Source: a virus. Taken from it: a DNA stretch of 64,000 bases. The stretch lies in the IMG/VR virus record IMGVR_UViG_3300012953_000020, positions 26,911 to 90,910 of that record; one strand, written 5' to 3'. The notes under the pieces were generated by a model. It was not told the origin of the DNA. It saw only the letters and a program-made list of their open reading frames with translations, and made no database searches. Both the position numbers and the translations under genes were made by a program. Positions 9,102 through 58,321 of this stretch are shown here, one piece after another (the first letter of the stretch is position 1; each line of letters opens with the position of its first letter).

Positions 9102-12100
9102 TTACTTGTAGACCAAGACTTGGATGTTGTCACCGGAAAAGAGATCGTAAGTAAAACTTAGCGTCTCCGTACCGAATGCATTAATGTCTTGCTGGGTCAC
9201 TTTCTGCATCGCTGTGATGTTAGAAACAGTGATTGTGCTGACACTTCCACCAACTCCTGCCGAATCAGAAACTGCGATTGTTGTGTTAATCGGCTTAATA
9301 AAGCCAGACGCAGCGACTCCGGAAACGTCCAAAGTCGTTGTACCAGATATCACAGTCGCTGATGAAATTGCAACATTGGAACCTGTAGCAGATCCTAATG
9401 TAAGGTCAACAACGGTAACACCGTCAAAAGCACGAACAATCTTGGTTGCTCCGCCAGCAGCTGACAAGAACGCGGTAGCTGAGGAATCGTCGTTAAAGAC
9501 TAAGTTACCAGAGCTAGCCAAGTTAATGTCTGCTCCACTTGAGTTAAAGCTAGAAAGACTTATAGCACTTCCGACAATATCACCCATTACAAGGTCAGTT
9601 GGCGATGAGTTACTCGAATCAGTAATACGAAGTACTGATCCTGGCTCAAAGGTAGCAGCAAAAGTCTTTGCATTTGCCTGAGAGCTTAAATCAAGAGAAC
9701 TTAAGCTTGAACCAATGCTCGAAATCGATGAACCATTAATCAAAGATTTCAACGAGCTATGTACACTAGCCTCCAGAATAACCCCTTGAGAGGACGTCTT
9801 CTTGAAGTTTGAACCAGTCAACTGGTGTTGACCGTTTACAAACGGCAGGACCTTGTTGCCCTTCGCTGCGAAGGTAGAGGCCGACCAAGTTACGTCTGAA
9901 TCACCAACAGGAGTCACTCCACTAAAGTCCACCACGTCACCAGGCTTGTGATCTCTTGTGAGATCCAAGTTGTAAAGTGTTGGGCCAACAGTTAAAGGAC
10001 CACCGTTCCAGTGCAGTTCCCCACTCACATTGTAGAGCTTGCCAGTTACCGTAGAAGGCTCCGTGATTTGCTCCAACTTCAGCGGGCTATTCTCAAAATA
10101 AACAGAGTCATTTTGATCGCCACCAGAAAAAATCATACCTGAAGCTGAATCAAGATGTATCGCGGTGTCACTTCCGTCTAGGCCTGCATTTAGCTTCACG
10201 CCACCGACGTCAGACGTCAATAGAATAGCTGGCGTTACCAATAAGATCTTGGCACTGCTGCCAGTCATACCAGAAATGCTCAGTAGACCATTACTTTCTA
10301 ACACTGACGGATCAGTGAAAGGTACCACGACAGCCGAACCGCCGGCGTAGGTGCCTATTGTCACGTCAGCAGTAGACGTCCCATCAGAAAACCTAACACG
10401 TGACGTAGCAGGGAAGGCAGTCGCGAACGCTGCTGCATTCGACGCGGAATCAAACGTGATATTCCCTGCAGCGGTTAGGTCTAGAGTAGAACCATCTAGA
10501 TTACCACCGTGAGTGTCCTTGGTATTGCTACCTAGGGTTGTACCTTGATCGGAGTGAATCTTGATTGTCTCACTTGTACCAGCATTTGCCCGAAGGTAAA
10601 TTGCGTTAGCCTCATCGACAGTAGACGTTACGTTGATATTACCAGAGCCTGCGATCGAAAGATCGGTACCTGAATGGGTGAAACTAACATCTTGATCAGC
10701 ACCAAATGCAAGGACAGAACTGTCACCTAGGTAAAGGTTCGCCCACTCGGCAGAGGTGCTGCCTAGTGACATTATTGTACTACCAGTAGTAGCCATCATT
10801 GCGGATGTAATTTGGACTCTGTCGCCGTCTCCGGCTTCAAAAACGATAGTATCATCGCCTTGAGAGCGAATCGAAGTATCGTCATCAGCGTCCAAAACGA
10901 TCTTACCAACGTCAGCTGCCTTACTAGCGCCTGTTGAAAAGCCACCTATGCTGACACTGCCTTGACCATTCAGGTCGATGTCATCAACGAAAAGCTTACG
11001 CCAAGCGACCTGTGCTGTTGCTGCAGTTACTGAACCACCCGCTGTGGCTCCGGAAGGAGAGCCTGAGCTCGAGAACGTACCGAGTGTACTTAAATCGTCT
11101 CTTGGATCACCAACAAAGCCCCAAGGAGTACTTGAAGTAATGGCTGCAGCTAACACGAATATCGCGGTGCCACCACTAAAGGTATATCCAACAGTCTGTC
11201 CAGCAGAAGCTGAAACGCCTGATAGACCAGAACCAGAGAAAGAACCACCATAGGAACTTATGCTCGATACTGAACCAATAGATGTAGTGTGACCACTAAT
11301 ATTAGGTAATGCACAAATCGACATTGATGAACCGCCAGAATAAGCCGACGTGACAACAAAGAAAAATTTGCTACTGCTACCATTAAGCGATAAGACAGTT
11401 CCTACAGCTATAGAACTTCCACTGTAAGAGTTTGAAATAGTCAATGTACCGTTAAAGGTGCTGGAAAAAGAGCTAAGACTAACCGATGAACCAACAGCTG
11501 ATTCTAAACCAGAAGGAGCAGAAGAAGCAGAAGGTGCTGTCAAGCTCGATCCATAAAGAACCGCTACATTACCGGAACTGCTCATAGCAAAGCTTTGGCC
11601 AGATGAGAGACCGCTTGTCAATCCAGAAGATGATGAACCTGCGGAGTGAGATGCGTCTACGGCTGCTTTACCGAGATCATCCTCACTGTCTCCACCAGGT
11701 TTAACGTTGTTACCACCCGGGTTTAAAACAATATCAGCTGCGGCAATAACCTGAAGGTCTGTCGACACGTCTAGGTAGTTGTCAGTTGAATCGGTGGGGT
11801 CAATATGCAGCTTACCAACTGCGAGACCATGGTAGCTTGAGCCTTTCTTAAGCTCCATTCTGTCACCAGTGGCATGCTGCTGAAACGTGATATCATCACC
11901 AGTACCACCCTCTAAAGTAAGTCCGCAACCATCAGTCACAGCGGTACCACCGTTATCCTGATCTAAAACAATATTGTGATCAGAGAATGATGAAACATTT
12001 GAGTCGATAGTCGTATTAGTGCCGGTAACTGTTAGATTGCCTGTAACTGTAACAGTCGTCGGAACAGTATACGTACCCATCGCAGAAGGAGGGTCAGTAA

Positions 12101-19237: not shown

Positions 19238-19243
19238 GTTACT

Positions 19244-19250
19244 TAATTAT
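19244..19250 (-). promoter_or_regulatory. Putative late promoter ATAATTA, 6 nt upstream of ATG
   Basis: Minus strand reads ATAATTAAGTAACATG and shares ATAATTAAGT with the site upstream of 8473. Confidence 0.55.
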
Positions 19251-19273
19251 TTGACAAAAGGTTTTAGTCACCT

Positions 19274-22200
19274 TTAAAATTCTGAGAATGGATCGCCGTC
19301 GCCGGGACTGAAGATGGAAATCTGTTCTTGTATAATTTCGCTATTTAATCGAACACGACCGCCCTTCCCTCCTCGGCTTGGATGAGGTAAGTCGAAAAAC
19401 GGCACTCTTGATCTCTGGTACCTGTCCAGGTTCTGGGAGAACAGGAGATTTAGGGCGCTATTGTTTGTTATCTCGCGGCGAGCTGGATCAAAAAACCGTG
19501 TCTCCACAGTCACTGTCCTGTTATCAGCGCTTATCTCATTATTGTTATTAAATGTACCCTCTACGTTAGTACAAACTGCCAGCTTTCTGCCCTCTAAAAG
19601 ATCGCAAAAATAACCAAAGTGGTTTCTTCTAAAAACCACCTTAGGACGAAGATGATCATAATTCATCATTCCGTACTTCACCCCCTTGGGGTGCTCTAGG
19701 GTTTGTCGTGTCTGCTCTGGTAACGCGTTCCAGTTTCCTCCGCCATAGGCATCGCTAGCGGCGGCGGTAAAATTATCCGGAAAACCAACACCGTCATGAC
19801 CAGACATGCTACCAGTGTTTACGGTCATTAAGTTCCTGTTGACCCCTGAACCAAAGCCGAAAAGCAAAGCTGCGGCTTGTCTAAAGCTACTGTCATTGAC
19901 TTGATCAATTTGATCTGTATACACTGGCTGTAAAGTGGCCCCAGACAAGTCTGTTATTTTTATTTTTTGAGTACCAGCGTCATAAAAAGTGTGGTAAACA
20001 TCACTATAATCGCCGCCTTGTGTAGCTTTCATAACTGAAACGAGTGTATCTGTATTTAAGTTAGAGCTCTTATCAAAGAATGCAGCAGTGGCGTTGGTAT
20101 TTGTTATCGTCAGCTGCTTTTTAACTGTTGGACTTTGGAAGATCTTTAATGTGCCACCAGATTCTTTACCCGCAAAATTATACTTATCGTCAGAAGTGTT
20201 AAGACCAAAGTTCGCAAATTCTTCTGTCTTTGTTAAGTCCCTGTTGTCAGCAGGATCAAAGTCTTCTTCCGCGAATATGTTAACACGGTTGCCGGCTTCG
20301 TCGAAATTATAAGTCTCAAAAATGAAGCGATGTCTCCAATCTGCTACAAATTGACTTTCAAAAGTCGAGATTGGCAGATTGGTCGCGGCGTCTACGTGAT
20401 CTTTTGATCTAACAATAACCCTGGTGTTCGTGTGTAGAGATATTGAAGCGTTTTCCTTGCCCTTAACAAATTCAAGATTCAATACGTTTCTCGTCCCGCC
20501 AGAGCTGGCGATACTAGTGACATTAAATATCATAAAATCACCATCGTCGGCAGCGTGGTCCCTAAACTCTATTTGTGTCTCGCCGCCCGATACGGCAGCT
20601 ACAGCACCTCTAACGCTGAGCTGTATATTGGCTAGTTGGCCCATCGTAATAGAAGTAGTCGCTTGAGTTATTGTAGCGCTTGGCGCAGATTCCGCAGTAT
20701 CTGCATACAAACTACCAAGCGTGTCATTGAAGTAAGTGTTTCTCTGCCTGATAGGTGCGCCTATGAATAGTGCAAGATTATTATCATCAATGTATGTGCC
20801 ATTTTCTGTGTGCACCTGCAGTAAGACTGGAGACATTGAGAAATCTGATTGTCGACTACCTGAAGTTAAGAACTTGGTAGGGACAATTTTCTTCCCTGGT
20901 ACGTGGGCCGGCATATATTTCGATATATCAACAGGTAAGGAGTCAAAAAACACTAAATCATGATTTTCAGAAATGTTGCTGGAGTCGCCCTTATAAATTG
21001 ACATAAAACGATCAACAGAACCGGTTGTAAGTAAAGCCTTAGGGCTACCCCCAACTTCATTAGTCCTAGATCCAAAAGTTATAGTCGACACACTTGAGTT
21101 AGTCCTTACAAAAGACGTTGGAGAAATAATTTCTGATGCCATAGATCCAGAGAACTCAGAGTCTAATCTAAGCTCATATTGATCATATGTTTCATCCCCT
21201 ATCACAGAATACACCACACCGGGGTTTACATAGTCAGTCTTTCTCTTCGGATACCTGGGTACGTTATTCTGGATGTAAGAACCATATAGCACTAACTTTG
21301 ACTGGCTGTGGGGCCCGAAAGTGGTCTCAATGCATTTACCAGTGTCAATAGCTCGAGTTCGGTTGCCGACTGAATGAACCGTTTGTCTGTTGCCCATATC
21401 ATCGAGCTGTGGTGGTATTTGACCACCACCTAGATTAACGAAAGAAGGAAAACCAGAATGAAATCCCGGGACAGCTGTTTGGAAACCTAAAACGATGTCG
21501 TCTTCTGGCTCTAAAATGTATGGATTTTCTTCCTCAAAATTTGTCCCAGTTGAAATATCCTCTGTAAAGAAACTCTTATATTGGTCTTTAGTCGGATCAA
21601 ACTGGTCAAAACTGTCCAGGTAAAAAGACATTTGGTTAAGTTTAAAGCTCTGGCCGCTAGGAGCGTCGCCAGACACAGTCTTAGCAGCGCGTGTGCCTCC
21701 TAAGCCATCAAAATCGTAACTTCCAATGAAGTTTGCTGTTGGGCTCACATTCACAAATTGAGGTAGTGTGGCTTGTGAAGGATTATCGTACTGATCTAAA
21801 ATCGCGAGGCGATACGGAAAATATTTCGCCAACTTCGGTGTGGTTTTACAGCTCCCCTTAACAGCTATAAGTCCAGAGTGCAAATTGTAGTTCCCTTTGT
21901 ACGTATTCGCATGGGAAGTAGCAGTTGCGTGAGAGACAAACCTGATAGCCTGGAGCCCAGCGGGAGCAGTTATACCAGCTAGTGAGCCACCAGCGTTGTC
22001 AACCAGATCCGTCGTGCCATCCTCACCCTTAAAAGGTCCGGATGATCCTTTTTTTGAATGATTCAAGCTAGAGACCTTTTTAGGTATTGAAAACTTTAGA
22101 CCCGTGACAGTGTTACGTGGGCCTTGAGACGAATAAAGAACGTCTACAAATGGATTATCATGAGGATCGGCATCTATCTTGATATTTAATTCACGTCCCA

Positions 22201-34936: not shown

Positions 34937-37900
34937 ATCTTAAACCGCCAAAAGCTATGGAGTCTGTACCTGGGTGCGGTGAAGAAAAATCAAAGCCGGC
35001 TCTTCTTCTAAAGTTTTCTGCGCCCAAATTTGTATCATCTATATGATTCAATTCCTGTACCTGTAGTACCAGTTTATCGATCTCATTAGACTCTGGGTTG
35101 TTACCGTTCAAGGGGTTAGCTTGAAAAATCCTCTCCTCAGTGTCTATATAAGGTCTAATTCTGGCATCATTCTTAAAAATAATACCTGGCACTCTTGCGT
35201 AAAAAACATTATTCGCCTGCTGGGTGGCATCTAGATCAGTGTATTGTATTAACGCTTGACCATTTTGGACCACCAACTCCGTAACTGTTGGGCAGTTGTC
35301 AAAGAAAGCCACATTCTTGGCTTCCTCAAAATTTATTTTGTTGTGTATAAGACATGCTTCGTTTCTTATAGAAGAAAAAGAATATTCACCGCCCATTTCC
35401 CCCTTAAGACCCCGCATAGGGGCTTCAGCAGTGTTTCTTTCTAGCATTAAGGTTCTTATGTCAAGAGGCTCTATGGTACCGTCAGTTTCAAAACCCAAGA
35501 TATTCCCTAAATTATTTACCTGGACTGGGAACCTTACATGAGGTGATGCGGTTAGGAAAAAGACTGGATCGATGTCCAGTGTATTTGGATAGTCGCCTGA
35601 TACTAATCGAGGCCCGTTCATAGAAAGATCATCATAAAACTTTAAGTCGCTAGTTCTTTTTCCGAATCCAAAACTGCGCACTTCAACATCATGATTAGGT
35701 TTTATATAGTGAGAAAGACCGGGGCCCGGGTCTCGAAGCTCTATGTTGAAAACAGGGGCGGAGAAATCCTCTATATTATAAACATTGTCAAAAGATCTAA
35801 AACCAAGACCCTCCATGGCCTCTACGCCGTTTCCTCCCCAATTTGGGTATGCGTCGCCATGAAGACTTGTTAACTTAACTGACTTGCTAGATATGTAGTC
35901 ATTCGCTCCTGAAAAGCCTGAAACTTCATAAGCTGCGGGTAAAGAGTCGGTGATATTGTTATTTCCTGCTGTACCGCCCACGACCTGCTTCATGTTCAGA
36001 TGTTGTATTGTTGATGGGTCATCACCTGCCGAATTTACGCCACCAATGTAGATCACGCTATCAGAGTTACCTGCGTTATGACCGTTTTCGCTGTTGATAG
36101 CCTTAGCCAATTCAAGCAAAACGTCTCTTCTTTTAGCGGTGGACTTTATATTGACAGCGACTGTGCCTATACTCGCGTGCCCTCCGGAAACTGTAGAACC
36201 GTCTGCGTAAGATGAACCTTGGCGTATTATTTCGCCTGTTTGAATTGCTTTATTTCCCGATGAACCCCCGTGCACGATTGTGTACGTTTTGGCAAGATCA
36301 GAAGTGGAAGTTAAACTAATAGAGTTTAAAGCAGTTGTTCCATGAGCCGCAGTGTCTGCGTCTTCGACCTTTATACTAGCGGCAGCGTGATTAATCGCTG
36401 GTGTAACTTTTAGGTTACCATCTGATACAGCTAAAGCGATCGTGTCATAAACTCTGTTTTTTAAATCGTGTGCGTTCTGGACACCTTTGGTACCGATGTG
36501 GTAAGCGTTTACAGGAAACATCTCTTGGACAGTTCCGTGGTTTGTGCCGTCAGTGCCGCCCCCTAGAACGCCGCCGTTATCTCCCTCAATGACTGAAGTT
36601 GCAACAAAAACCTCTCCTACATTAGGCGAATTTGAAGATGCACCTAGGGCCTTCCAGTTTGTTGTGGATGCTACACTCAGTATCTTATATTCTTTCCTCT
36701 TTCGTAAGGAATCTTTATCATTCACCTTTATAGCTGGGTTTGGTACGTGGGGAGAGATAATAGGAGTGTAAAGCGCTTCGTTAGATGACAGATAAATTTT
36801 CTTTGAGTCTTGATTAAACGACCCAGGACTAGAAAGAGTAGAAGCGTTACCTGATTCAAAGAAACCAGTCACATCATCTCTCATAAAAGAAAAATATGTG
36901 CTTTTGTCGCTAGAAACAAGACCCTCTGTCATAGAAATCTCTATGCTGGTTAATTTGGTCGTGGTCTCAAAAATAGATATAGTATATTGAAAATTTGCCT
37001 CAGAAACTGTTTTAAGAACAAAATTTAGAGGGGTAGCCTTAGTCAACTTATCCAAAAGCTCCTTGAATAAATTCATGAACCGTCTTTTTATATTCGAAGA
37101 TGGAGCGAATGGGTTAATCCTAACCTCAGTTGACTTTCGCTCAGTGTCAAAGCTTATGCTGTAGTCTTTTATCGCTTTTAGTCTAGGGCTTATGTTAAAG
37201 TTTATTAAAAATGAATCATCTGGTTGGTTTGTATCAACAGTGGGTATTCTATCATTAAAAGTAGTATACTTTATCGACATAAAAACTGTATCGGGCGCGT
37301 TTGAGGCTTCAAGATCTGGACATTGGAAAAATACGCTAGTGTCCCTTGTCGAAGAAGACCACCTCCTACCGTCAGTCACAAGATCATGGAACATTACGTC
37401 GCCGGAATCTTTAGCAATCATCTTCCAGTTTTCTAACCCAAAAGATCCGGTTGCGAATGCTGGGTTTGTGGTGTCTAGACCGTCTTGAAATAACTTCTTA
37501 CCGATAGCCGAATCTAAATGGACTTTTACAACTCCTGTGCCAGATCCTAAATTAGTTCCGCTAGATGCAGGCACTGTGAATGTTGTTCCGGCTGCATTTG
37601 AGCTAGCAAAAAACGGGGTCTTAGTAAAATCTGTCCTTGGACCCGGTGCACCGAACTCATTTCGGGTAAAAGTAGAAACAATTTCATATTTTACTCCTTC
37701 ATGCAAAGAGCCAACGTTCACTAACGAGTTGTGGTGATCTTGCACAATCAAGAGCGTGTCATCAAAAACTATCCTTGAAGTTATTCCAGTGGAAACAGAA
37801 TTGTAGTTAATGATCCTGTTTATATCAAAAGTAGTCCTTTTTATCTTTTGTTCATCAGAATTAAAAGTGTCAGTATACGGCTCTGCGACACCTGTCGTTT

Positions 37901-38690
37901 TTTCGTCTGGATAATAACCGGGTGGATCTCTCATACCTAACGCAAACATAGTGGTATCAACAGGGTGCATCTTGTCACCAATGTTCAGTGTCCGGACCTC
38001 ACCGAGCTTTCCACCAGTGAAAGCTGGTATAGATATGTAACCATCTGAAATCGCTGAACCTATTGGGGTGTAATTACCCCTTGTACCGCCGTTGTCTTGA
38101 GTGAGCTTAATAGTTTGGCCATCCAAGACCGGGGTAATCTCTAAGTCGCCATCAAGATGGGCCTGAAATAAAGCATCGTATATCTGGGCTGCTATTGCCG
38201 TTCTAAGATCAGCGCCAGATGTATCACTTATACCGATGTTCCAATTATTCGAAGAGTCCCTAGTGTTTGACGATGATGTCGCGTCTATAGTAAAAGTAAT
38301 GTAAGGTATAGAAACGTACTGCTTGTTATTGTCAGACAAAGTGAAAGTTTTTCCGTGTAGAACACCAATACTCGTCACTGTCCCGTTTACTGTTAACACA
38401 GAGGTAGCAGCTGTATCTCCCACCACTTTTATCTTAAGATCATGAGGTTCGCCTTTACAAGATTGCACATGAAGAGTGTAGTGCCCTGGACCCATATCTG
38501 TGGGTATGCTTTTGACCCTAAGGCTATAACTAGATTTTTTATCAGATTTGTGAGTTATTACGACATTAGGATTCGCGAGAGGGTGAAACCTAGCTCGGGT
38601 TTGAGACAGCATCTGCTCTATTGTTTTTACATTAACACCTTGCTCAAAACCAACCAACTTTACTTCGGCAGAGTCTCTTACTGACGCCAT
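34929..38690 (-). CDS. Multidomain virion protein (1253 aa) with inserted modules
   Basis: Overlaps the next gene by 8 nt. Carries AHGTTAL, NWKALGASSN and FTGG modules shared with the 2266- and 632-aa proteins. Confidence 0.8.
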   Translation of the reverse strand: MASVRDSAEVKLVGFEQGVNVKTIEQMLSQTRARFHPLANPNVVITHKSDKKSSYSLRVKSIPTDMGPGHYTLHVQSCKGEPHDLKIKVVGDTAATSVLTVNGTVTSIGVLHGKTFTLSDNNKQYVSIPYITFTIDATSSSNTRDSSNNWNIGISDTSGADLRTAIAAQIYDALFQAHLDGDLEITPVLDGQTIKLTQDNGGTRGNYTPIGSAISDGYISIPAFTGGKLGEVRTLNIGDKMHPVDTTMFALGMRDPPGYYPDEKTTGVAEPYTDTFNSDEQKIKRTTFDINRIINYNSVSTGITSRIVFDDTLLIVQDHHNSLVNVGSLHEGVKYEIVSTFTRNEFGAPGPRTDFTKTPFFASSNAAGTTFTVPASSGTNLGSGTGVVKVHLDSAIGKKLFQDGLDTTNPAFATGSFGLENWKMIAKDSGDVMFHDLVTDGRRWSSSTRDTSVFFQCPDLEASNAPDTVFMSIKYTTFNDRIPTVDTNQPDDSFLINFNISPRLKAIKDYSISFDTERKSTEVRINPFAPSSNIKRRFMNLFKELLDKLTKATPLNFVLKTVSEANFQYTISIFETTTKLTSIEISMTEGLVSSDKSTYFSFMRDDVTGFFESGNASTLSSPGSFNQDSKKIYLSSNEALYTPIISPHVPNPAIKVNDKDSLRKRKEYKILSVASTTNWKALGASSNSPNVGEVFVATSVIEGDNGGVLGGGTDGTNHGTVQEMFPVNAYHIGTKGVQNAHDLKNRVYDTIALAVSDGNLKVTPAINHAAASIKVEDADTAAHGTTALNSISLTSTSDLAKTYTIVHGGSSGNKAIQTGEIIRQGSSYADGSTVSGGHASIGTVAVNIKSTAKRRDVLLELAKAINSENGHNAGNSDSVIYIGGVNSAGDDPSTIQHLNMKQVVGGTAGNNNITDSLPAAYEVSGFSGANDYISSKSVKLTSLHGDAYPNWGGNGVEAMEGLGFRSFDNVYNIEDFSAPVFNIELRDPGPGLSHYIKPNHDVEVRSFGFGKRTSDLKFYDDLSMNGPRLVSGDYPNTLDIDPVFFLTASPHVRFPVQVNNLGNILGFETDGTIEPLDIRTLMLERNTAEAPMRGLKGEMGGEYSFSSIRNEACLIHNKINFEEAKNVAFFDNCPTVTELVVQNGQALIQYTDLDATQQANNVFYARVPGIIFKNDARIRPYIDTEERIFQANPLNGNNPESNEIDKLVLQVQELNHIDDTNLGAENFRRRAGFDFSSPHPGTDSIAFGGLRYV

Positions 38691-41600
38691 TTAAAATCTC
38701 CTTAGTACACCTGATCTTTGCGATACCAGTATTTTTGATCTCAATTTAGATCGCTCATCCTCACCTTTGTAGATTTCTTGGTGACCATAAGTGATCTTAC
38801 ACCTTTCAAGCGCGTGAGATTCTATTATTAGATTGATACCTAAGAAGTTGCTGTTCCTAGGTACAAATTTTTCTATCATATCAGAAAATGCGTCGTCTAG
38901 CCACCTAAATAAATCAAAAAAGTTTCTATAGTTAACCTTATCAGTCAACCTATTGAAATATAATTCCCTCATGTGCCTTAAGTCAGGATACTCACGAGTA
39001 AATGCCAGCTCAGGCCGGCCCAGAGCGTCGTCTAAAGCATCGATAGCAGAGAATATGTTCATGATGTCTTCGTCTAGACCTCTTTGTAGATGAACCTGAA
39101 TTTCGAATCTGTTGTCGTTTACTTTCTTTTCGAAAGGTAATATCTTGGTCACTGGAGCGAGTTTAGAATTAAACAGCTTTATGTTATGACCATCGGAAAA
39201 TCCAGCGATTCTTATCTTGTCACTATCCAGATACTCGTCATAAAAGGGGGATATTATTGTGAAATCAAATCTAGAATTTTCTACGATCTTTCTAGAACCC
39301 TCAAACCCAAAACACGCAGCGCCTGACATACTAGTATACACACCTGATTTTATCTTTGATTCGTTCATCGGTGTAAACGTCTGCGAAAAGTCAAGTAAGT
39401 CAAGACGCCCGGTAGGGTTGGACGTTCTGTTTACTTGATCGGTTGAGACATTTAGTCTTAATTTCTGAAATGACCCAGACCTTGTCGTACTAAAAGTATT
39501 GTTTATGAGGGGAGAATCGACACCAACAGACTTGAAGTTTCTAGCATGTTCTTTTGATTCCTCCTCAGAAAGACGCTTTGACCAAAACTTAATATGGCCG
39601 ACCCTACCATCGAAGTATGTTGTTCTAGCGTCAGTCGGCACGTTATCAGTTGAAGTGTCATTTAGGAATTTACCGGAGGTAGTAGCATTCACCATTGACT
39701 GAGAGCCTATCAGTATCTGTGGTGGATAAAAGTGTTCGTAGGTATCAGTCGAAACTAGGTGGCTTGATTTTTGGAACATATTGGATGTAGTGGCACCTTC
39801 ATTAAAAAATGAGCCGGTGCTAATGTACGTCTTTATCTTGTCATAATCTAGAGCAGCAGCCCTGATAAAGTAAGAAGAACTTACTGGTTGGCTAGCTTCA
39901 TCGTTTCTTTGACGGCCGTAAGCGATATACCATTTTCTACCGTCTAAACAGTTTGCTCCAGTCAAAGCAGTAACCATAGTAGGCGCGTCATTGTGGTGGC
40001 GATTTCGTACGTATAGAGTAAGTTGGTCGCCGAAAGGTGAAAGTACCAGGTTGGATAGGACAGCGTGCTTGTCCTTCCAATTCTGGCCGGTTGTGCTACC
40101 TTGCACGACTATTCTAGACAAACTTCTTTTATCTTCCTTCGAAAGATTACTAGTAAACTGGTATATGCCCTCGACTGTCCATGACCCTGAAGTTAATAAG
40201 CCGTCGTCTTTTGTCGCTGATATACCATTATATTCATAACCTTGAGTGTTCGCCCTGACAAATCCGTTGCCACCTGCAAAACCTGCGACAGATATGAATG
40301 GTGGAATGCTTTCGTCAGTCTCAGCGTTATAGATTCTTGTGACCTCATCTGCGGTCAGAATGTCCTTGTAGATTTGAAACTCACCGATTTTACCTTTAAA
40401 CGATCTATCTTCGCTGTGTCTATTTCCTATAAAGCACCCTTCTGTAGCTATACCTGAAAATGTTGCGTGTTTTGTTCCTGACGCTAGTGTGACTGTCTTA
40501 CTCACTCCATTGATGTACACCGTCGGGTTATTTGCCGCAGTGTTGGTAGCGTCATAAGTAACCGCTACATGGTTCCATGAATTTAAAGTGAGGTACGCTT
40601 GATCTGTTCTCCACTCTACAGAATTATTATTTAGCTTAACACTAAACGCCAGGATCTCAGTATTCGTAGTGTATAGAAAAATGTCTTCTCCAAAATCGAA
40701 TATTCTTCCTTCATTACCCTCTCCATCACCTGACTTATAGATCCACATACAGAATGACATCTTCTTCGAAGATGAGCTTGCGCTGCCAATGGTATCATTC
40801 CATTGTGTAGCAGTGCCGATTGAAACAGAATCGTTAAATCCGTCAAATTGTACAGCATCTATGCTCCTGGTCTTTGAAGTAAAGTTTGAAGTAACCAATC
40901 CAGGAATGTTACTAGTGATTGTTGCGTTTGCAGGATTATCAAAAGATCCTTGAAATACGTTAAACGAATTGCTCACAATCGTTGATGGATTTAATTCATT
41001 TTTGTGCGCGTTATTGAGGCTAAGAATCGCTGCCCTAAGTTGTGCTAAAACGTCAGACTGACGAGCTGAACTTAAATTTACACCAACAGCGATGCCATCA
41101 GCGCCAGCAGAGAAGACAGCAGGAATTGGGGAGCCGCTATTTGACTTCAATGTCTGGCTTGGGGTCAAATCAGTTCCAGTTGCTGGCCCACCGTCGTTAG
41201 TATCAGAAACGAAATAATCTCTTATGACACCAGAGTCAGACTTAATAGTAACCTTTAGCGCTTCTGTCATGGTGTTAAAAACCGCGGTGGGGCTGTTGAC
41301 TGAGAAGCTAGCAGCGGAGGTGACCGCTTGAGTTGTAATAGGCATTGGGTTACCTATAAAGTTTGTCACAGTTAACCAGTTAGCGCTGGATACATTTGAT
41401 ATATTACTGGTGATTGTTGTGGCGCCGGCGCTGCCAATCGTGTTTTGAGTCAATGTTATTGGTTCGGTTAAGCTGCCCGCTGAAGGTATTGTGGGAACTA
41501 CTATCAGACTACCGTGACCGTTCGCGTCCTCGATAGCTGCTTTAAGGACTGCAATCACATCTCTTCGGGTCGCAGAGTCTATGATCTTTACTGCGACTGT

Positions 41601-44600
41601 CCCAACCGCTGCCTCTTCCACAGTGCCGTGAGGGGTGCCTTGAGCTGCAACATTCGTTGCCGTAAAAATTTCTCCAGCAGCCGGCGTGTTAGATGAAGCC
41701 CCGAGGGCCTTCCAGTTAGAAGTACTCCCTGTGGTTAAAATCCTGTACTTTCTTCCGTTCACTAACGAATTAGATGTTGTATTTGCGGCGATGGTCGCGG
41801 CTGCTGTACGGCCGACATTAGAACCGACAGCCAACACAGTACCGGTCGCGACGGCAGATGCGCCTCTTACTATAGTATAGGTCTTAGATGTCTGGTTCGT
41901 CGATATTATAGTGATGCTTTCCAAAGCAGTTGTGCCATGTGCAGTTGTTGGACTAGCAACTTGCAAAGTGGCAAAAGCGCCTCGAGGTTGATACGCGGGT
42001 ACCACTGCTACCAAAGTCCCTTTATTCGTAGGAGAAGTATTTGACATTCTCACCCAAAGAGCGGGCTTCTTTGTCGAATCCAGAATTATTGAATGATTGC
42101 CTAGATTACTACGGCTTGAACTGATCGTACTTAGGTCAATCGTGTCTTTGTTACTGTTGGTCGATTTATATCCCGTCTTTGTCGTTATGGCGCTTGAAAA
42201 AACAGAATTGATGCTAGTATTTAGATCTTCTGTCAACGCCATTGAAGTTTTTGCAGTGGCAGTAAAATTAGTCGGAGTGATATTCGATATGCTATTGGAA
42301 ATAGACTTGTTAGCAGCTGAACTCACAACTGCCTGCATTAGCTCAACTTTTAACTCACCCCCAGAGACAACTTGGGGGGTGGGAAAAATTATCTTGGAAT
42401 CCGGTACGCCGGCGTTATGGCCGTTGGCGTGATCAACAGCTGTTTTCAGTTTTACCAGTACGTCTCTTTGGGAATCTCCATTTAATATATTAACAGCAAC
42501 CCCTCCAGCGTTTGAGGCTCCAGCGGTGCTAGTGCCTGTATCTGAAGATGATATTAATACCGTGCCTGTGGCGACAGCAGAAGTACCAGTTGCGCCGCCG
42601 TGCACGATTACGTATTTCTTTTCCGTACCATCAGTAGAGACCAAAGTGATGCTCTGCTTCTCTGTCGTGCCGTGAGCAGAAGACGCTGTTGGGACTGTTA
42701 ACGTAGCAATGTAATTTAGGCGGCTAACAACTTTTGTACCGCCAGTAAAGTTAGTAACCGTGACATTAGCGCCAGTTAATAAGTTGGAAGTCGATCGATT
42801 ACCTGTATTACCAGTTACCGACTGTGTTAATGTGATTAACTTCTTGGTTCCAGAGCCAGCGGTTGGATCTGAAACTGTTATTTTTCCGTTATGGCCGTTG
42901 TCATGTCTAATGGCGTCTCTTAATTGTTGCAAAAATGTATTACCATTAGCAGCGCTTCCAGTTATCGCTATGGCGACAGCTATTCCTCCCACAACCGCTT
43001 CTTCAACTTCGCCATGATCAGTCCCAGAAGCGCTGGTCGATGTGGCAGTGAACACCTCTCCTACGGTAGGAGTATTTGAAGATGCGCCTAAAGCTTGCCA
43101 ATTTGTTGTGCCCCCCACACTTAGTATCCTATACTTTCTTCCGTTCTGTAGGGAGGCTGTATTCGTTCTGGCAACAACGACTCTAGATCCTAAATCACTC
43201 CCCACGCCTAAAATAGTGCCGGTTGTCAATGTTGTGGTAGTCGCATCAATAACGACATATCTCTTAATCGTACCATCGACAGATTCTAAAGTTATTAAAT
43301 CAGTCTCTGCTAAACCTGGAGCGGCGGCACCGTTCGCGACTGTAACTGTCGCAGTGGCTTTGATATTGGCGTTCTGATCCAGAAACTTAAAGAATTCAGT
43401 CTTATTAAAGGCATCCTGTATCGTAAGTTGAGTATCTGCCGGCGGTATCGCAGTTCTGTCTCGAGGGTGAAAATAGATACTAGCAGAAGCCAAAACATTT
43501 CTACCGGAAATTTCTGGAAAGCCGGGCTCAATCCGACTAGCGGTAAGAGGAGCCGTTAAAAGAGTGGGGCGATCGTTAAGAGTCCCATCAGCTCTGGCAA
43601 CTTCTGGAAACTTTCCCAAACTACCAGAAAAATTTAGCATTGTTGACATCTCTGTGATTTGCTGTCTTGAAATGCCCATCCTGAACTCATTAACACCGTT
43701 GTATTCCACTAACCTAAAGATCCTACCAGGCTCTATACCTGCAGACCTAAAAATTGTTTCGATGGCGTACTTCGTACCTTTAGACTTGAAGATATGGCTG
43801 ATATTTTTTAACACCCGTCTCCAAATCAGGTTCTGTATTTCAAAAAGGTTTCGCTCGTATATCGAGTACTCAAGCCCCAAATTCTCTTTTCCTAAGAACT
43901 GCTCAAAAGAAACCTCACCGAATATCTTAGGTAAATCAAATCCGTAATATTTCGCTAGATCAGGTAAAAAAGCGTCGGCAGTTCCGTCCTTACCCTCGTA
44001 GTCAGGGTGTAAAAATTGAGAAACTTGATCTAAGAACATTTTGTATTGATCAAGCTCTTCAGACATGTAATACAGCATTAGTGACATTAATTGAGCATGT
44101 CCAATTCTGCCGGATTTTGGAAGGGTGCCGGTAGAGCTATAATTCTCTACTATGCTACCATCGACTGTCAATCCCTCTAAATACGCACCTTCTTGTAAAT
44201 AATGATTAGGAATCAACTTCGTAATCATGTTCGGGTTGTTAATATCGTACTCTGTAGCTAGTTCTAGTAATTCTGCATTTAAGCTTATTACATCAGGATA
44301 GTTTGGAAATAATATTGGGCTAAACCTTTTGTCCTCTAAAAAGGAAGGATCAGGTATATTTCCAGGGTTTCTCATACTTTCTTGATAGTTCGATATTCTA
44401 GAATGTAAGCTATTACCGCTATGATCTAGGACAACGTCATTGTTGGAATGAGAGCCCATTGGTTCATTAAACCTTAAATAGAACCTTAAGTTTTCATGAG
44501 CGAAGGTATTCCTATTTGAGTAATACTCCATCTCATCAGAAGTTCTTGCTCCATGAAAAATTCTAAATTCGTCTATAGAACCCTTGAATGTTGAAGCCTT

Positions 44601-45491
44601 CACAAAATCTAAGTGACCGGCTTTAAAAGAAGTTGGGCCGTCAGCTATTGTCAAATCGGCACCAGCAGTGTTAAGTCCAGGATAAAAGAAATAGTCGCTT
44701 TTAGATAAAACATTAGAGCCAGAAATTATTTGCACCGACTGCTGTTCTTCCCTATTGTCGTAAAAGAAAGACAGATTGTACCACTTCCCCTTGTCAATGG
44801 CGTAACTGGCAGATGCGTAATTGCTACTACCACTGACAATTGCAAAATTAAGAGTACCAACCTTGGTAGACGAAGACTCGTCGAGAAAAACAGCGAAACC
44901 TGTGTTAAGAGTGCTACTCACACTATGACACACGAAACTTTTTTGATTCGTTTCCTCAGGTAATCTAATGGCCATCTCAATAGAGAAAGGATTTAATTCA
45001 GGGTTTATATAAGCAACCCCTTCTTCACCATTTAGAAGCGACTTATTTAAGTTTCCTGACTTGTCTTTCACAGTTATATATTGGTTATTGTCAGATGAAA
45101 AGGTTACGAAACCCTTATTCTTTGGAAACCTGTCTAGGACATATTTTTCTAAGGATGACAAGCTATCCTCAAACTGCTCCACCTGTTGTAAGGAACCGTC
45201 AAACGGATATTTATTTATGATTTTGTCAAAAGCCACATTTATCTTTGCTTCTGCAGAACCGAAGAAAGTGTTGTTCTGGAAAAGTGAATTATCAACAGGA
45301 ATTTGTTGAGTAGATATTATGCCATTGTTTTCGTTTCTTCTTCGAAAGCTAGTGTCATCATCGTTTATGCTGGTTACTGTCAGCTTTTTTTGATTTTGAT
45401 CTAAAAGCACACCTCGATTCGTAGTGTACTTTCTGAGCATTCTTTTAGTAAAGAACTTTACGTTCTCAAATGTCATTGTCCTTCGAGCCAT
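38691..45491 (-). CDS. Baseplate wedge protein, T4 gp7/P2 gpI-like core with LamG domains and a ~1080-aa nested insertion (2266 aa)
   Basis: FLPDLAKYYGF...IWRRVLKNISHIFKSKGTKYAIE resembles the gpI/gp7 'KSKGT..AI' motif. Lies two genes after gp6. LamG motifs: KWYNLSFFYD..FKGSIDEFRIF and WNHVAVTYD..FKGKIGEFQIY. Confidence 0.65.
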   Translation of the reverse strand: MARRTMTFENVKFFTKRMLRKYTTNRGVLLDQNQKKLTVTSINDDDTSFRRRNENNGIISTQQIPVDNSLFQNNTFFGSAEAKINVAFDKIINKYPFDGSLQQVEQFEDSLSSLEKYVLDRFPKNKGFVTFSSDNNQYITVKDKSGNLNKSLLNGEEGVAYINPELNPFSIEMAIRLPEETNQKSFVCHSVSSTLNTGFAVFLDESSSTKVGTLNFAIVSGSSNYASASYAIDKGKWYNLSFFYDNREEQQSVQIISGSNVLSKSDYFFYPGLNTAGADLTIADGPTSFKAGHLDFVKASTFKGSIDEFRIFHGARTSDEMEYYSNRNTFAHENLRFYLRFNEPMGSHSNNDVVLDHSGNSLHSRISNYQESMRNPGNIPDPSFLEDKRFSPILFPNYPDVISLNAELLELATEYDINNPNMITKLIPNHYLQEGAYLEGLTVDGSIVENYSSTGTLPKSGRIGHAQLMSLMLYYMSEELDQYKMFLDQVSQFLHPDYEGKDGTADAFLPDLAKYYGFDLPKIFGEVSFEQFLGKENLGLEYSIYERNLFEIQNLIWRRVLKNISHIFKSKGTKYAIETIFRSAGIEPGRIFRLVEYNGVNEFRMGISRQQITEMSTMLNFSGSLGKFPEVARADGTLNDRPTLLTAPLTASRIEPGFPEISGRNVLASASIYFHPRDRTAIPPADTQLTIQDAFNKTEFFKFLDQNANIKATATVTVANGAAAPGLAETDLITLESVDGTIKRYVVIDATTTTLTTGTILGVGSDLGSRVVVARTNTASLQNGRKYRILSVGGTTNWQALGASSNTPTVGEVFTATSTSASGTDHGEVEEAVVGGIAVAIAITGSAANGNTFLQQLRDAIRHDNGHNGKITVSDPTAGSGTKKLITLTQSVTGNTGNRSTSNLLTGANVTVTNFTGGTKVVSRLNYIATLTVPTASSAHGTTEKQSITLVSTDGTEKKYVIVHGGATGTSAVATGTVLISSSDTGTSTAGASNAGGVAVNILNGDSQRDVLVKLKTAVDHANGHNAGVPDSKIIFPTPQVVSGGELKVELMQAVVSSAANKSISNSISNITPTNFTATAKTSMALTEDLNTSINSVFSSAITTKTGYKSTNSNKDTIDLSTISSSRSNLGNHSIILDSTKKPALWVRMSNTSPTNKGTLVAVVPAYQPRGAFATLQVASPTTAHGTTALESITIISTNQTSKTYTIVRGASAVATGTVLAVGSNVGRTAAATIAANTTSNSLVNGRKYRILTTGSTSNWKALGASSNTPAAGEIFTATNVAAQGTPHGTVEEAAVGTVAVKIIDSATRRDVIAVLKAAIEDANGHGSLIVVPTIPSAGSLTEPITLTQNTIGSAGATTITSNISNVSSANWLTVTNFIGNPMPITTQAVTSAASFSVNSPTAVFNTMTEALKVTIKSDSGVIRDYFVSDTNDGGPATGTDLTPSQTLKSNSGSPIPAVFSAGADGIAVGVNLSSARQSDVLAQLRAAILSLNNAHKNELNPSTIVSNSFNVFQGSFDNPANATITSNIPGLVTSNFTSKTRSIDAVQFDGFNDSVSIGTATQWNDTIGSASSSSKKMSFCMWIYKSGDGEGNEGRIFDFGEDIFLYTTNTEILAFSVKLNNNSVEWRTDQAYLTLNSWNHVAVTYDATNTAANNPTVYINGVSKTVTLASGTKHATFSGIATEGCFIGNRHSEDRSFKGKIGEFQIYKDILTADEVTRIYNAETDESIPPFISVAGFAGGNGFVRANTQGYEYNGISATKDDGLLTSGSWTVEGIYQFTSNLSKEDKRSLSRIVVQGSTTGQNWKDKHAVLSNLVLSPFGDQLTLYVRNRHHNDAPTMVTALTGANCLDGRKWYIAYGRQRNDEASQPVSSSYFIRAAALDYDKIKTYISTGSFFNEGATTSNMFQKSSHLVSTDTYEHFYPPQILIGSQSMVNATTSGKFLNDTSTDNVPTDARTTYFDGRVGHIKFWSKRLSEEESKEHARNFKSVGVDSPLINNTFSTTRSGSFQKLRLNVSTDQVNRTSNPTGRLDLLDFSQTFTPMNESKIKSGVYTSMSGAACFGFEGSRKIVENSRFDFTIISPFYDEYLDSDKIRIAGFSDGHNIKLFNSKLAPVTKILPFEKKVNDNRFEIQVHLQRGLDEDIMNIFSAIDALDDALGRPELAFTREYPDLRHMRELYFNRLTDKVNYRNFFDLFRWLDDAFSDMIEKFVPRNSNFLGINLIIESHALERCKITYGHQEIYKGEDERSKLRSKILVSQRSGVLRRF

Positions 45492-47389
45492 TATACAACC
45501 TTAAAGGTAAAAGAAGAGTCAAAAAGAACCGTCTCACCGTTAATATCACTAAAGATCTCTATTTTATAAGTGTACCCAGCGTTAAGCGTTCCTGATTTAA
45601 TGATAGTTGAAAATGTGTTTCCGTACAAGCCCATCTTAGTAGAGTCAGGGAATGTATGGAAAATGACAGTTTCACCTGATGTTAATTCAGAAACCTTGTA
45701 TATTAAATCGCCAGAAAAGCATTCTGGATCTTTTCTTGTCTTGCTAGCAGAATAATTTTTAGAACTAACGGTTGCAGTGCAAGAGATATTAATATCTTCA
45801 TGCGCTGAATATTCTGACTTTCTGTTCTTAAAAGCTATTGAAACAGAAGTAATGTCAAAGTCAGAATAATTGTCGTTGTAAACTCTAGCTTTTCTATTTT
45901 CAAATGTTATTGCAGAATCTGTAGTCTGCCACTTTAGATCAACGTCGAACCCAGTTGGATCTGCCACTAGGGCTTTTTTTATGTAAGAATTGTTACTAGG
46001 TAGTGTGAATGAAGCCTGATATACACCTACTAACCTACTTGCGTCTGATGAGCGATTGACTTGACTAAAATTTACTGACTGTGTGAATGAACCAGAGACC
46101 ACCTTTAGAACTCCGCAGTTATCACCGGCCAATTGAGCGCCTGAGTTATCAAAAAGATTAGAAGAAGCCACACCCTTTTTAGTCTTTAAGATCACTGTGT
46201 TAGACTTATCCAAGTATATTCTGTTAGAATCGTCGATTATTGAATCATCGAACACAACCCTGAGTCTGGGTGTTAGAAGCTTATTTTTGATATGTCTAGA
46301 AGCAAACCTCTTTACAAACCTGGTTCTGCTGTCTGTATCGTAAGAGCCGCTGAACCCTATCCTAAAGCCGTTATTGTTAATCAAGCCCTTTAAGCTGGCT
46401 GAAACTGCGTTGGTAATATCAAATACAAGATCCTGGTTTGGTTCTGACAAATATTTAGAAGACCCTAAATCGATCTTAGTGGTTCCAAAAGAGGCAGAAG
46501 TTATAATATCTAGATGAGATGTGTTGTGGCCACCGGCAAATTTGGATGCAGATAATCTGGTGGCCCCATTTGCTAAAGTTATAGCAGTGTTTCCAGTTAG
46601 CCCAGTGTCATTCTGTTTTAAAGTGACAACTGCAGAACCACTCGGATCTGTTGGTGTAATCCTTAGATCTCCACTAGTCCTAGAAAGCTCAATCGCTGTA
46701 AATATTCTAGAAGCTATGACGGCAGTTGTGGCAGCGCCGTTTATACCGAATGTGTAGTTTGTCGCGTCTGTTCTAGTTGCCGAGTCTGATCCTGGGTTAG
46801 CTAAGAAAGACACAACGCTTGTTCCGTCATTGAGCGTAAACCCAACAGTGTTATCCCAACCAGCAGTGCCTGTCACAGTGACTGATCCCTCTGCGACGGT
46901 CGCATCATTTCCACCCGCAGCGCTCGCTCCTTCAGATTTCCATAACGTGGCAGATGCTGAGGTGAAAGAAGAAGTTAAATAATTGGCTGCGCCTAAATCA
47001 TTAAAAAGGTTAACGTCTATCCCAAATCCTTCTTCAAAATCTCGTACTAACGGATTACATATCGCTGAAAAATTAAATGGCTTTTGTAGGCCTGAGCTTA
47101 CGTCATTTAATTCAAGATATGCCTTAAACCCCCTGGAGCCCTTTATGTCAGCTATGCTAGAAGTCAATTTACCGACCTTGGAATAGTCAAACTTGATTAG
47201 CAGAGCAGATTTCTCCATTATATTCGAAGTTACAAAGTTTCCACCCTCTATAACGCCTGACTCTTCGAAAAGCTTAAATAGATCTAAGGTGGCAGCTCTA
47301 CCTGTGTTAGAATTTTTAGATCTATATTTGTTATCAATAACTTTGTCTGTTATATAACAGTCTTTGCTGGCGGTAATTACTAGTTGCAC
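45491..47389 (-). CDS. Baseplate-associated protein, DNRLRE-like beta-sandwich, with one inserted module (632 aa)
   Basis: ASKDCYI...SALLIKFD...NNGF...FASR...PRLRV pattern. GTG start overlaps the gp6 TAG. Insert at about 46529-46908. Confidence 0.55.
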   Translation of the reverse strand: MQLVITASKDCYITDKVIDNKYRSKNSNTGRAATLDLFKLFEESGVIEGGNFVTSNIMEKSALLIKFDYSKVGKLTSSIADIKGSRGFKAYLELNDVSSGLQKPFNFSAICNPLVRDFEEGFGIDVNLFNDLGAANYLTSSFTSASATLWKSEGASAAGGNDATVAEGSVTVTGTAGWDNTVGFTLNDGTSVVSFLANPGSDSATRTDATNYTFGINGAATTAVIASRIFTAIELSRTSGDLRITPTDPSGSAVVTLKQNDTGLTGNTAITLANGATRLSASKFAGGHNTSHLDIITSASFGTTKIDLGSSKYLSEPNQDLVFDITNAVSASLKGLINNNGFRIGFSGSYDTDSRTRFVKRFASRHIKNKLLTPRLRVVFDDSIIDDSNRIYLDKSNTVILKTKKGVASSNLFDNSGAQLAGDNCGVLKVVSGSFTQSVNFSQVNRSSDASRLVGVYQASFTLPSNNSYIKKALVADPTGFDVDLKWQTTDSAITFENRKARVYNDNYSDFDITSVSIAFKNRKSEYSAHEDINISCTATVSSKNYSASKTRKDPECFSGDLIYKVSELTSGETVIFHTFPDSTKMGLYGNTFSTIIKSGTLNAGYTYKIEIFSDINGETVLFDSSFTFKVV

Positions 47390-49311: not shown

Positions 49312-49808
49312 TACCCAGCTGCCCTTATTATTACTTCTACAACTTGATTACTTAAATTTAACCCTGGCACTGCGTACAAGACCCTAACTCCTATCTTTGC
49401 GGTGTGTTCATTATCGGAATGCTCCGTAAAAGCCTCAAATCCTGTCAAGCTGATATAAGGCATGAACCTGCCTACAGCGTTATTAATTCTAGATATTGCT
49501 TCTTTCTCTATCTCGTCAGTCGCTAGCTCAAAAGCTAATTCTTCTAGGTTAGCCCCAAAATTGTAGTTGCCCAAACGCTCACCATGGTTTGTCATAAGCA
49601 AATTTTTAAAATTGTCTTTTATCTGATCTTTTAGGTCCTTGTGCATACGAAAAAGACCATCGCGACCAGAACCAAGCTCCAGAGGGGTCTTGATTCCGAT
49701 TAATTTTACAAACTCTGTGTCTCTCTCGTACTTGTCAAGAGTTGACTTAAGTTGTCCAGCAGACTTAAAAGTTATTTGCTTTCTATTTTGGGTTCTTTTT
49801 CTGGACAT
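49311..49808 (-). CDS. Baseplate wedge/sheath initiator, gp25-like (165 aa)
   Basis: IGIKTPL...DQIKDNFKNLLMTNHGERLGNYNFGANL...FE is the GPW/gp25 signature; RBS GAGGT. Confidence 0.9.
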   Translation of the reverse strand: MSRKRTQNRKQITFKSAGQLKSTLDKYERDTEFVKLIGIKTPLELGSGRDGLFRMHKDLKDQIKDNFKNLLMTNHGERLGNYNFGANLEELAFELATDEIEKEAISRINNAVGRFMPYISLTGFEAFTEHSDNEHTAKIGVRVLYAVPGLNLSNQVVEVIIRAAG

Positions 49809-54701: not shown

Positions 54702-55002
54702 GATAAGTTTCTCCAAACTTTTTAGAAGAAACGTTTTTGGATAAAGCGTTTGCGACTTGCAATATAGACTCCCTACACTCATCGATATCTGAATGTACTT
54801 GTCTTACTTCATTGCTATCATAGAATAAGGGTATCTCTAGAATTCTCGATATTGATTCTTGTCTAGCGTCTAAAGTTCCCAAGCTTTCCTCTAAAGCGTC
54901 TTCTATTTTTAATAATAACAGCGCAAACTTTACCATAAAAAAACTAGAAAAACATAAAAGAAGTGCCAGTGCGCTTATGATAATGATAGCGGTAATACTC
55001 AT
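54679..55002 (-). CDS. Membrane-anchored coiled-coil hypothetical protein (107 aa)
   Basis: N-terminal hydrophobic stretch (IIIISALALLLCFSSFF) followed by an acidic coiled coil; ATGA overlap with the upstream gene. Confidence 0.8.
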   Translation of the reverse strand: MSITAIIIISALALLLCFSSFFMVKFALLLLKIEDALEESLGTLDARQESISRILEIPLFYDSNEVRQVHSDIDECRESILQVANALSKNVSSKKFGETYLEEEKKD

Positions 55003-57418: not shown

Positions 57419-57427
57419 CTAAAAAAA

Positions 57428-58306: not shown

Positions 58307-58321
58307 TAATTAATTGTAATA

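Follow-up and report, generated by a model that had tools for sequence, protein, structure and literature searches.

By what route do giant phage tail proteins gain the small domains that they carry inside one another? The question is raised by a 64,000-nucleotide (nt) stretch of the virus record IMGVR_UViG_3300012953_000020 (positions 26,911 to 90,910), called the window below, which makes up the last 64 kb of this 90.9-kb record and holds what is, judged from its sequence, the baseplate and fibre module of a marine jumbo myovirus that has not been cultured. At window positions 9102-47389, on the minus strand, seven domain families (B, C, A1, A2, D, E and LamG), delimited by iterated profile searches, are spread over five giant virion genes. 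The original prediction, made from this DNA alone, had taken such families for a candidate new system of mobile plug-in domains. Accretion, turnover and nesting of domains in loops are indeed found at this locus, but the dedicated mobile system did not hold up, as neither an enzyme, nor a junction signature, nor young copies were observed. The probable explanation is a recombination-driven shuffling and cassette exchange of surface decoration domains at permissive loops.

Recurrent domain families in the giant virion genes

The minus strand carries all large open reading frames (ORFs), and those of 1675, 5220, 1253, 2266 and 632 amino acids (aa) lie where they had been predicted. The genes and their modules are the following.

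9102..14129, minus strand: g1675, a fibre-like scaffold, with A1 at aa 51-164 and 493-599, E at aa 240-449 and 821-1040, and A2 at aa 1202-1301 and 1519-1619
14216..16084, minus strand: g622, a module-poor paralogue of g1675 (shared blocks with 69% protein identity and 75-88% DNA identity)
19274..34936, minus strand: g5220, with LamG at aa 375-593 and 641-838, D at aa 1070-1180, 1769-1868 and 2317-2425, a B-like module at aa 1152-1280, A1 at aa 1505-1610, A2 at aa 2851-2960, B at aa 2947-3222 hosting A1 at aa 3054-3158, and B at aa 3730-3895
34929..38690, minus strand: g1253, with a B-like module at aa 90-230 (38001-38423) and B at aa 765-931 (35898-36398)
38691..45491, minus strand: g2266, a giant baseplate protein with 29 orthologues, at the gp7 position by gene order alone (two genes after the gp6-like gene, with g632 between)
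45491..47389, minus strand: g632, with a B-like module at aa 138-290 (window 46520-46978)

The families have the following sizes and copies.

B, about 150 aa: in g632; three times in g1253 (the small C-hosting domain being marginally detected); four times in g2266 besides an outer mini-B; three times in g5220; once outside the window
C, about 60 aa: twice in g2266 and once in g1253
A1, about 100 aa: twice in g5220 and twice in g1675
A2, about 100 aa: once in g5220 and twice in g1675
D, about 110 aa: three times in g5220
E, about 200 aa: twice in g1675
LamG (PF13385), about 190 aa: once in g2266 and twice in g5220

The recurrence of small domain families across the five genes, as originally predicted, is supported by E values of 1e-13 to 1e-31. 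With composition-based statistics, g2266 matched g5220 at 1e-17 to 1e-30 and g1253 matched g2266 at 1e-13 to 1e-19, and copies within g2266 reached 6e-31. Hidden Markov models (HMMs) of the modules gave 29 matches for the real proteins, against zero for 20 proteomes shuffled in blocks of 100 aa, a control that is partly circular since the HMMs were trained on the same copies. By these E values and empty shuffled proteomes, the similarities survive correction for Ser/Thr/Gly composition. Besides g632, g1253, g2266 and g5220, B was found in p1138 and in a tail sheath protein, and its profile retrieved 171 independent cluster representatives among 1.84 billion proteins. These B-bearing representatives are 81-5220 aa long and contain one to five B copies at varied positions. 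The B-like stretch of g632, used as a jackhmmer seed, converged on the B family and matched g1253 aa 93-227 with an E value of 3e-5.

All the motifs quoted in the original prediction are present in the sequence. Its family A does recur but is not a single family, as A1 and A2 have no relationship detectable by hhalign (probability 1.3%), and its list has been extended by D and E, which have three copies in g5220 and two copies in g1675, respectively. In the same way, no relationship between D and B was detectable by hhalign. Two genes of the interval, g622 and g902, were absent from that prediction.

When the giant proteins and the isolated modules were compared with PHROG and Pfam, LamG, a lectin-type fold, was the sole match (Laminin_G_3, PF13385: 83.7 bits in g2266 for a threshold of 27.6, and 77.9 bits over two stretches in g5220); apart from it, no isolated module matched Pfam even at E = 1. 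Concerning C, a C-like stretch of g5220 near residue 3683 was not significant, and a search in longer proteins found none, which is weak evidence given its length window and short query. An ESM Atlas look-up gave weak leads only (0.77-0.81, one CBM_5_12 cluster) that are not used as evidence. Of note, at least 90% of 23 diverse B copies share an N-G-H motif directly behind their single helix (for example at g2266 aa 865-867, 1023-1025 and 1324-1326), and this motif may serve as a structural cap or as a ligand site.

Nested modules, filled sites and empty sites

The comparisons below rely on two relatives from IMG/VR, G001 (188 kb) and G002 (66 kb), which share the gene order at about 70% identity; G000, G001 and G002 are three related records, all partial. 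The g2266 scaffold consists of a conserved N-terminal part (about 1-690) and a conserved C-terminal part (about 1740-2266) with a hypervariable centre between them, and its 29 orthologues range from 1248 to 2266 aa, with zero to four B modules and with or without LamG. In the empty scaffolds P0163-P0166 (1315-1329 aa, 51-57% identical), some 200 residues are found where g2266 has 1150, and they form one small B-like domain (weak B-HMM matches). P0163 aa 716-789 matches g2266 aa 1058-1140, and P0163 aa 791-869 matches g2266 aa 1733-1811. In g2266, this mini-B receives two insert arrays: the first is B#1 with C#1 inside it, followed by B#2, and the second is B#3 with C#2 inside it, followed by B#4 and LamG. 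The hierarchy is thus scaffold, mini-B, B and C, with each member hosting the next. The parts of this nest, and a further nest in g5220, are listed here.

40269..43433, minus strand: three-level nest in g2266, the outer mini-B being in three pieces (aa 687-712, 1086-1145 and 1733-1741)
42729..43355, minus strand: B#1 hosting C#1 at 42972-43166 (alignments, AlphaFold model)
42237..42719, minus strand: B#2, no insert; present in G001, absent from G002
41352..41984, minus strand: B#3 hosting C#2 at 41586-41780 (alignments, tree)
40857..41333, minus strand: B#4, in this genome only; a 149-aa indel relative to G001 and G002
40287..40859, minus strand: LamG (Laminin_G_3) of g2266, aa 1569-1717 (PF13385, profile positions 10-150 of 151)
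25271..26098, minus strand: B of g5220 hosting A1#2 at 25463-25777 (E-INS-i alignment of seven B copies)

A splitting of the g2266 LamG by B modules was also considered and is not supported, since Pfam covers those profile positions in one stretch.

Filled and empty forms of the same site are found in several genes. C#1 occurs in this genome only, the site being without C in G001 and G002, and B#1 is a mosaic, with flanks orthologous to the G001 B#1 (57% and 75%) and a C that is nearest to C#2 (67%). At the B#3 site, G001 has the same B with its C, and G002 and P0156 have B modules of other clades without C. In g1253, C lies at aa 657-729 (36504-36722) inside the small B-like domain, again in this genome only, and both orthologues show a clean gap of about 75 aa at that site; an extra B at aa 314-437 of the G001 orthologue is missing here. 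The A2 of g5220 (aa 2851-2957) is missing in G001, in which A2 (aa 816-908) is nested in LamG#2, a domain that is uninterrupted here and in G002. Finally, the G002 orthologue of g5220 lacks A1#1 and has a B inserted at aa 102-255 that is 49% identical to g5220 aa 3735-3885. The module sets therefore differ between orthologues at about 70% identity, and the homologues do not all carry the same modules at the same positions, in keeping with what had been predicted.

A similar contrast exists within the genome. The genes g1675 and g622, which read as a recent paralogue pair, differ by about 1050 extra residues in g1675, in at least seven inserts, and their place is held in G001 by a single 928-aa gene. 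The E modules are missing in g622 and kept in g1675 and in the G001 homologue. For the 220-aa module at g1675 aa 821-1040, the flanks are identical between g1675 and g622 over 24/24 and 21/21 nt. The G+C content reaches up to 0.48 across this region. The neighbouring gene g902 (window 16529-19237) is fibre-like and contains five internal tandem repeat sets (for example aa 282-429 vs 456-598) and no cross-gene modules.

The nesting of modules inside other domains and inside each other, which the original prediction had described, is seen both in alignments and in a structural model. When seven B copies are aligned, two of them show a C insert (about 65 aa) in the same loop, and a third one has an A1 insert (about 105 aa) in a different loop. 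The AlphaFold model of B#1 with its C (m579754de66db) has a predicted local distance difference test score (pLDDT) of 89 and a predicted template modelling score (pTM) of 0.85. Its residues 2-216 (110 aligned) superpose on a single domain of 119 contiguous residues in the phage Mu sheath (Z 8.1, root-mean-square deviation 3.1), so that the two B halves form one domain in the model, with C leaving from a loop. The idea of plug-in modules with close termini is thereby backed as far as the C-hosting B halves fold as one domain that superposes on contiguous domains, but the distances between termini come from the model by inference.

The best fold matches of B according to VIA-align were 9khy_a (Z 8.1), 8kee_A (Z 7.9) and 9cb9_A (Z 7.1), with FliD and FliC at Z 6-7. 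The top matches are nearly all surface insertion domains, namely those of myophage sheaths, a T7-type nozzle, FliD D2/D3, flagellin D2/D3 and T4 gp11. Against the PDB, B with its C gave no Foldseek match at E <=0.001 and no match by sequence search. In BFVD, the fold matches of B were uncultured-phage proteins, some of them baseplate-J-like. The A1 model (m440d38496c9b, pLDDT 87) is a small beta-barrel with no specific relative (Z <=6.5). Taken with the lectin-type fold of LamG, these results would suit exposed modules for decoration or adhesion.

Movement between genes and its probable route

A maximum-likelihood tree of 41 B modules contains one clade (support 100/97) that spans at least four host proteins including a tail sheath. 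Its members are g2266 B#4, a B of g5220, the N-terminal B of the G002 g5220 orthologue, B modules that other gp7-position proteins carry at their two hot spots, the sheath B and several small proteins. A single site can in turn hold three B clades, a first one in this genome and G001, a second one in G002 and a third one in P0156. The module phylogeny is thus discordant with the host-gene phylogeny, which agrees with the movement between genes that had been proposed. Between P0156 and P0007, the flanks are 75-90% identical and the B module at the same site is 39-52% identical, a difference that reads as a cassette swap. In parallel, B with its C also occurs as a unit in the distant proteins P0139 and P0100, which indicates that C has spread in part together with its host domain. 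The sheath protein concerned, P0039 (1208 aa, metagenome), has Phage_sheath_1C at aa 1103-1202 and its B, of the clade of g2266 B#4 and g5220 B, at aa 188-345.

At the strain level, where the comparison was made on contigs and not on reads, contigs of four independent marine metagenomes with at least 99% identity cover the module region without indels. The presence/absence polymorphism of inserts, for which a check had been suggested, was accordingly not found at this level of identity. Contigs from four other studies run across the module boundaries, for example at 42080-43777 and 40745-41760. In a patch at window 43044-43314, which covers C#1 together with the N-terminal half of B#1, the contigs of the four marine metagenomes, otherwise at least 99% identical to the window, share at least 20 differences. 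This patch, dense in single-nucleotide polymorphisms, looks like a local homologous recombination tract, and such patchiness among near-identical strains suggests that recombination is active at the locus. A joint in run X2 that skips 39077-40175 was treated as another organism (26 letters on its shorter side, unlike loose ends nearby).

The modules, their nesting, the filled and empty sites, the discordant module tree and the lack of element-like features are shown by the data. In the shuffling account, for which we infer the recombination route, the surface exposure and the binding role, conserved assembly scaffolds would present surface loops that bear B, C, A1, A2, D, E and LamG as autonomous small domains. 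The DNA of a domain would enter a loop by rare illegitimate (microhomology) recombination. It would then be spread, swapped or lost by homologous recombination between paralogous host domains within the genome, by recombination between co-infecting relatives with cassette exchange between conserved flanks, or by unequal crossing-over in tandem arrays. Selection would retain only in-frame products with adjacent insert termini, so that inserts would gather at a few permissive loops and nest. The modules are most likely surface decorations that may provide a weak multivalent binding of host envelope glycans or other surfaces, or brace the baseplate, and their turnover would follow host-surface variation.

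A history of loss alone, in which a module-rich ancestor underwent in-frame deletions with neither gain nor transfer, appears rather unlikely. The lack in g622 of E modules retained by g1675 and the G001 homologue fits deletion, and tandem B arrays can shrink by unequal crossing-over. However, close relatives have B modules of different clades at the same site, and A2 is found in LamG#2 in G001 and about 2000 residues downstream here, each site being empty in the other genome. A B that is 49% identical to g5220 aa 3735-3885 stands at the N-terminus in G002, and one B clade is shared by a sheath, the gp7-position protein, g5220-like proteins and several small proteins. Under loss alone, the ancestor would need to have possessed every module at every site. 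An artefact, be it from low-complexity sequence rich in Ser/Thr/Gly/Ala or from metagenome contigs wrongly joined across repeats, is scarcely credible. It is true that S, T, G and A abound in the proteins, that the record was assembled from a metagenome and that the G+C content rises in the g1675/g622 region, but the composition-corrected BLAST E values go down to 1e-31, the twenty block-shuffled proteomes are without matches and the models are confident. In addition, contigs of four other studies at >=99% identity cross module boundaries, and the same scaffolds are present in orthologues on independent contigs.

The presence of the same families in many genes and loops would also be expected if the modules were selfish or "homing" elements, inserted in frame and transferred by a specific enzyme or by sequence-directed copy-paste. 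This would agree with the expansion of C and B in this lineage (C#1, the g1253 C and B#4 are found here only), with the position of C at the equivalent loop of different host domains and with a B clade common to unrelated host proteins. Nevertheless, reverse transcriptase (PF00078) and HNH nuclease (PF01844) are absent from G000, G001 and G002, partial as these records are. PHROG scans found neither transposase nor integrase among the window ORFs, and the absence of transposase, reverse transcriptase and integrase from the window, already stated in the original prediction, stands after PHROG and Pfam scans. A diversity-generating retroelement is not seen either, there being no reverse transcriptase and, in 9000-47500, only repeats that are diverged module and paralogue copies. 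No common termini or target-site duplications were found at eleven g1675/g622 junctions and the g1253 C junction, most events being old. The junctions are heterogeneous, some being clean, one having the identical flanks mentioned above and one being tandem-duplication-like, and microhomology at the g1253 C junction is beyond resolution at the present divergence. Intragenomic protein identity is 18-44% for A1, 23-37% for A2 and 38-70% for C (72-76% in DNA), which indicates that these copies are old. No near-identical module copies were found, DNA identity of 75-88% being confined to the g622/g1675 scaffold blocks. Together with the lack of indels among the near-identical contigs of four metagenomes, and with B and C spreading as a composite (P0139, P0100) rather than by repeated C insertion, this makes a dedicated mobile system very improbable. 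It is also very improbable that a lineage of marine jumbo phages has a private toolkit of at least five insertion-competent families whose movement is actively favoured, for instance by recombination targeted to conserved sequences at module boundaries or to the equivalent B loop. Such "domain homing" without an element-encoded enzyme, if true, would diversify host-recognition surfaces.

Several points nevertheless weigh against recombination-driven shuffling. Every junction is too old to show a recombination signature directly, and the close relatives in IMG/VR number two, both partial. The fold scores of B (Z 6-8) and A1 (Z <=6.5) are in a range that unrelated models also reach, and with such borderline values a resemblance is claimed for the B fold and not a membership. 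Surface exposure and ligand binding are predicted from fold resemblance to outer domains, and the adjacency of the insert termini is likewise a prediction. Finally, C is found at a topologically equivalent loop in B and in the g1253 B-like domain, which could reflect structural tolerance or recombination with a donor made of B and its C, and some targeting is conceivable.

Related systems, significance and genomic setting

Fraser et al. reportedly described in 2006 the promiscuity of immunoglobulin-like (Ig-like) domains in phage virion proteins, and Hayes et al. are said to have reported in 2018 the decorations of lactococcal phages by carbohydrate-binding modules (CBM). Like Ig-like, BACON and CBM accessory domains, the modules described here are small autonomous domains present in different structural proteins, in varying number and with a phylogeny discordant with that of their hosts; a surface-adhesion role is presumed, with recombination as the driver and no dedicated machinery. 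On the contrary, B, C, A1, A2, D and E match no Pfam or PHROG model, they are inserted mostly at internal sites and in a hierarchy of up to three levels, instead of terminally or in tandem, and the scale is extreme, with a 5220-aa protein and 1150 inserted residues vs about 200 in the empty form. BACON repeats vary among crAss-like phages (PMC6949934), and domain mosaicism has been described as common and ongoing in the tail fibre, spike and baseplate proteins of phages, with a shuffling of protein fragments in tail, baseplate and receptor-binding proteins (PMC10684548).

In large-phage sheath proteins, extra outer domains are carried on a conserved N- and C-terminal core and their number rises with genome size (PMC9230969). 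The proteins studied here likewise have an N- and C-terminal core with outer domains formed from the outgoing and returning chain, the best B fold matches are of this kind and a B homologue lies inside the sheath protein P0039. Unlike in the sheaths, the host proteins are of the baseplate or fibre type; sequence similarity to solved chains is lacking, and the Z values are borderline. Flagellins have conserved ends and a hypervariable centre (PMC7018530), and the likeness to the D2/D3 domains of flagellin and FliD (5h5v, 6kty, 4nx9) concerns the conserved assembling termini, a hairpin-inserted centre, a variable domain number and replacement by recombination, as well as the B fold, which resembles FliD D2/D3 and FliC D2/D3 (Z 6-7). 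A phage baseplate is nonetheless different from a bacterial filament, and the resemblance is one of fold, with no claim of homology. As with inteins or homing-endonuclease insertions, the modules stand in frame inside host domains and have empty and filled alleles. Unlike inteins, they come with no endonuclease and no conserved boundary motif at the insertions (intein splicing motifs were not specifically searched), they are also ordinary domains of small proteins, and their copies are old with no strain-level polymorphism seen. The locus stands apart by its unannotated domain families, its deep nesting and its very large proteins, recombination shuffling itself being already described (PMC10684548, PMC9230969).

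As a natural record of the growth of giant phage tail proteins, the locus is unusually clear: a scaffold of about 1300 aa, empty in some relatives, bears up to 1150 extra residues in others, in the form of domains nested in domains. It has allowed defining several unannotated families that tolerate loop insertion and themselves accept insertions. These modules are candidate receptor-binding or adhesion parts of abundant marine phages and possible parts for engineered loop-inserted phage displays; no new class of mobile genetic element is opened by the locus.

Two genes upstream of g632 anchor the locus as a myovirus baseplate module.

47389..49311, minus strand: gp6-like baseplate wedge gene, 640 aa (PHROG 219 and 10646)
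49311-49808: gp25-like gene, 165 aa (PHROG 261 and 43)

Downstream of gp6, the gene sizes are 632, 2266, 1253, 5220, 902, 622 and 1675 aa, and giant genes run on past the 9102-47389 interval. No PHROG match was obtained for g2266 at E <=0.001, and its sole PDB sequence match was a pentraxin, via LamG. The closest cultured relatives, seen in the baseplate wedge proteins, are Flavobacterium phage immuto and Microcystis phage Mel-JY01 at about 29% identity, and at the nucleotide level the baseplate genes matched nothing among cultured phages. The record has a completeness of 31% according to CheckV, which leads to a genome estimate of about 290 kb. Its marine origin is indicated by near-identical DNA in runs of eight marine or aquatic studies and by homologues with Tara Oceans labels. 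Besides the two useful relatives, the IMG/VR scans gave one 10-kb fragment.

A sugar-nucleotide and glycosylation cluster at window 54999-63696 comprises three glycosyltransferases, two nucleotide-sugar epimerases and a phosphoheptose-isomerase-like protein, and a Cas4/PD-(D/E)XK-type exonuclease is found at window 57428-58306. The relative G001 (IMGVR_UViG_3300020473_002200) is classed as a provirus in IMG/VR, yet its 1-80000 stretch is syntenic with the free-phage-like contig studied here. Finally, a homologue of the giant B-bearing proteins, P0215 (5453 aa; NCBI OUW10969.1), lies on a 116-kb contig in the "Candidatus Pelagibacter sp. TMED166" metagenome-assembled genome; that contig is probably of phage origin and binned with a bacterium, a placement that may hint at the host.

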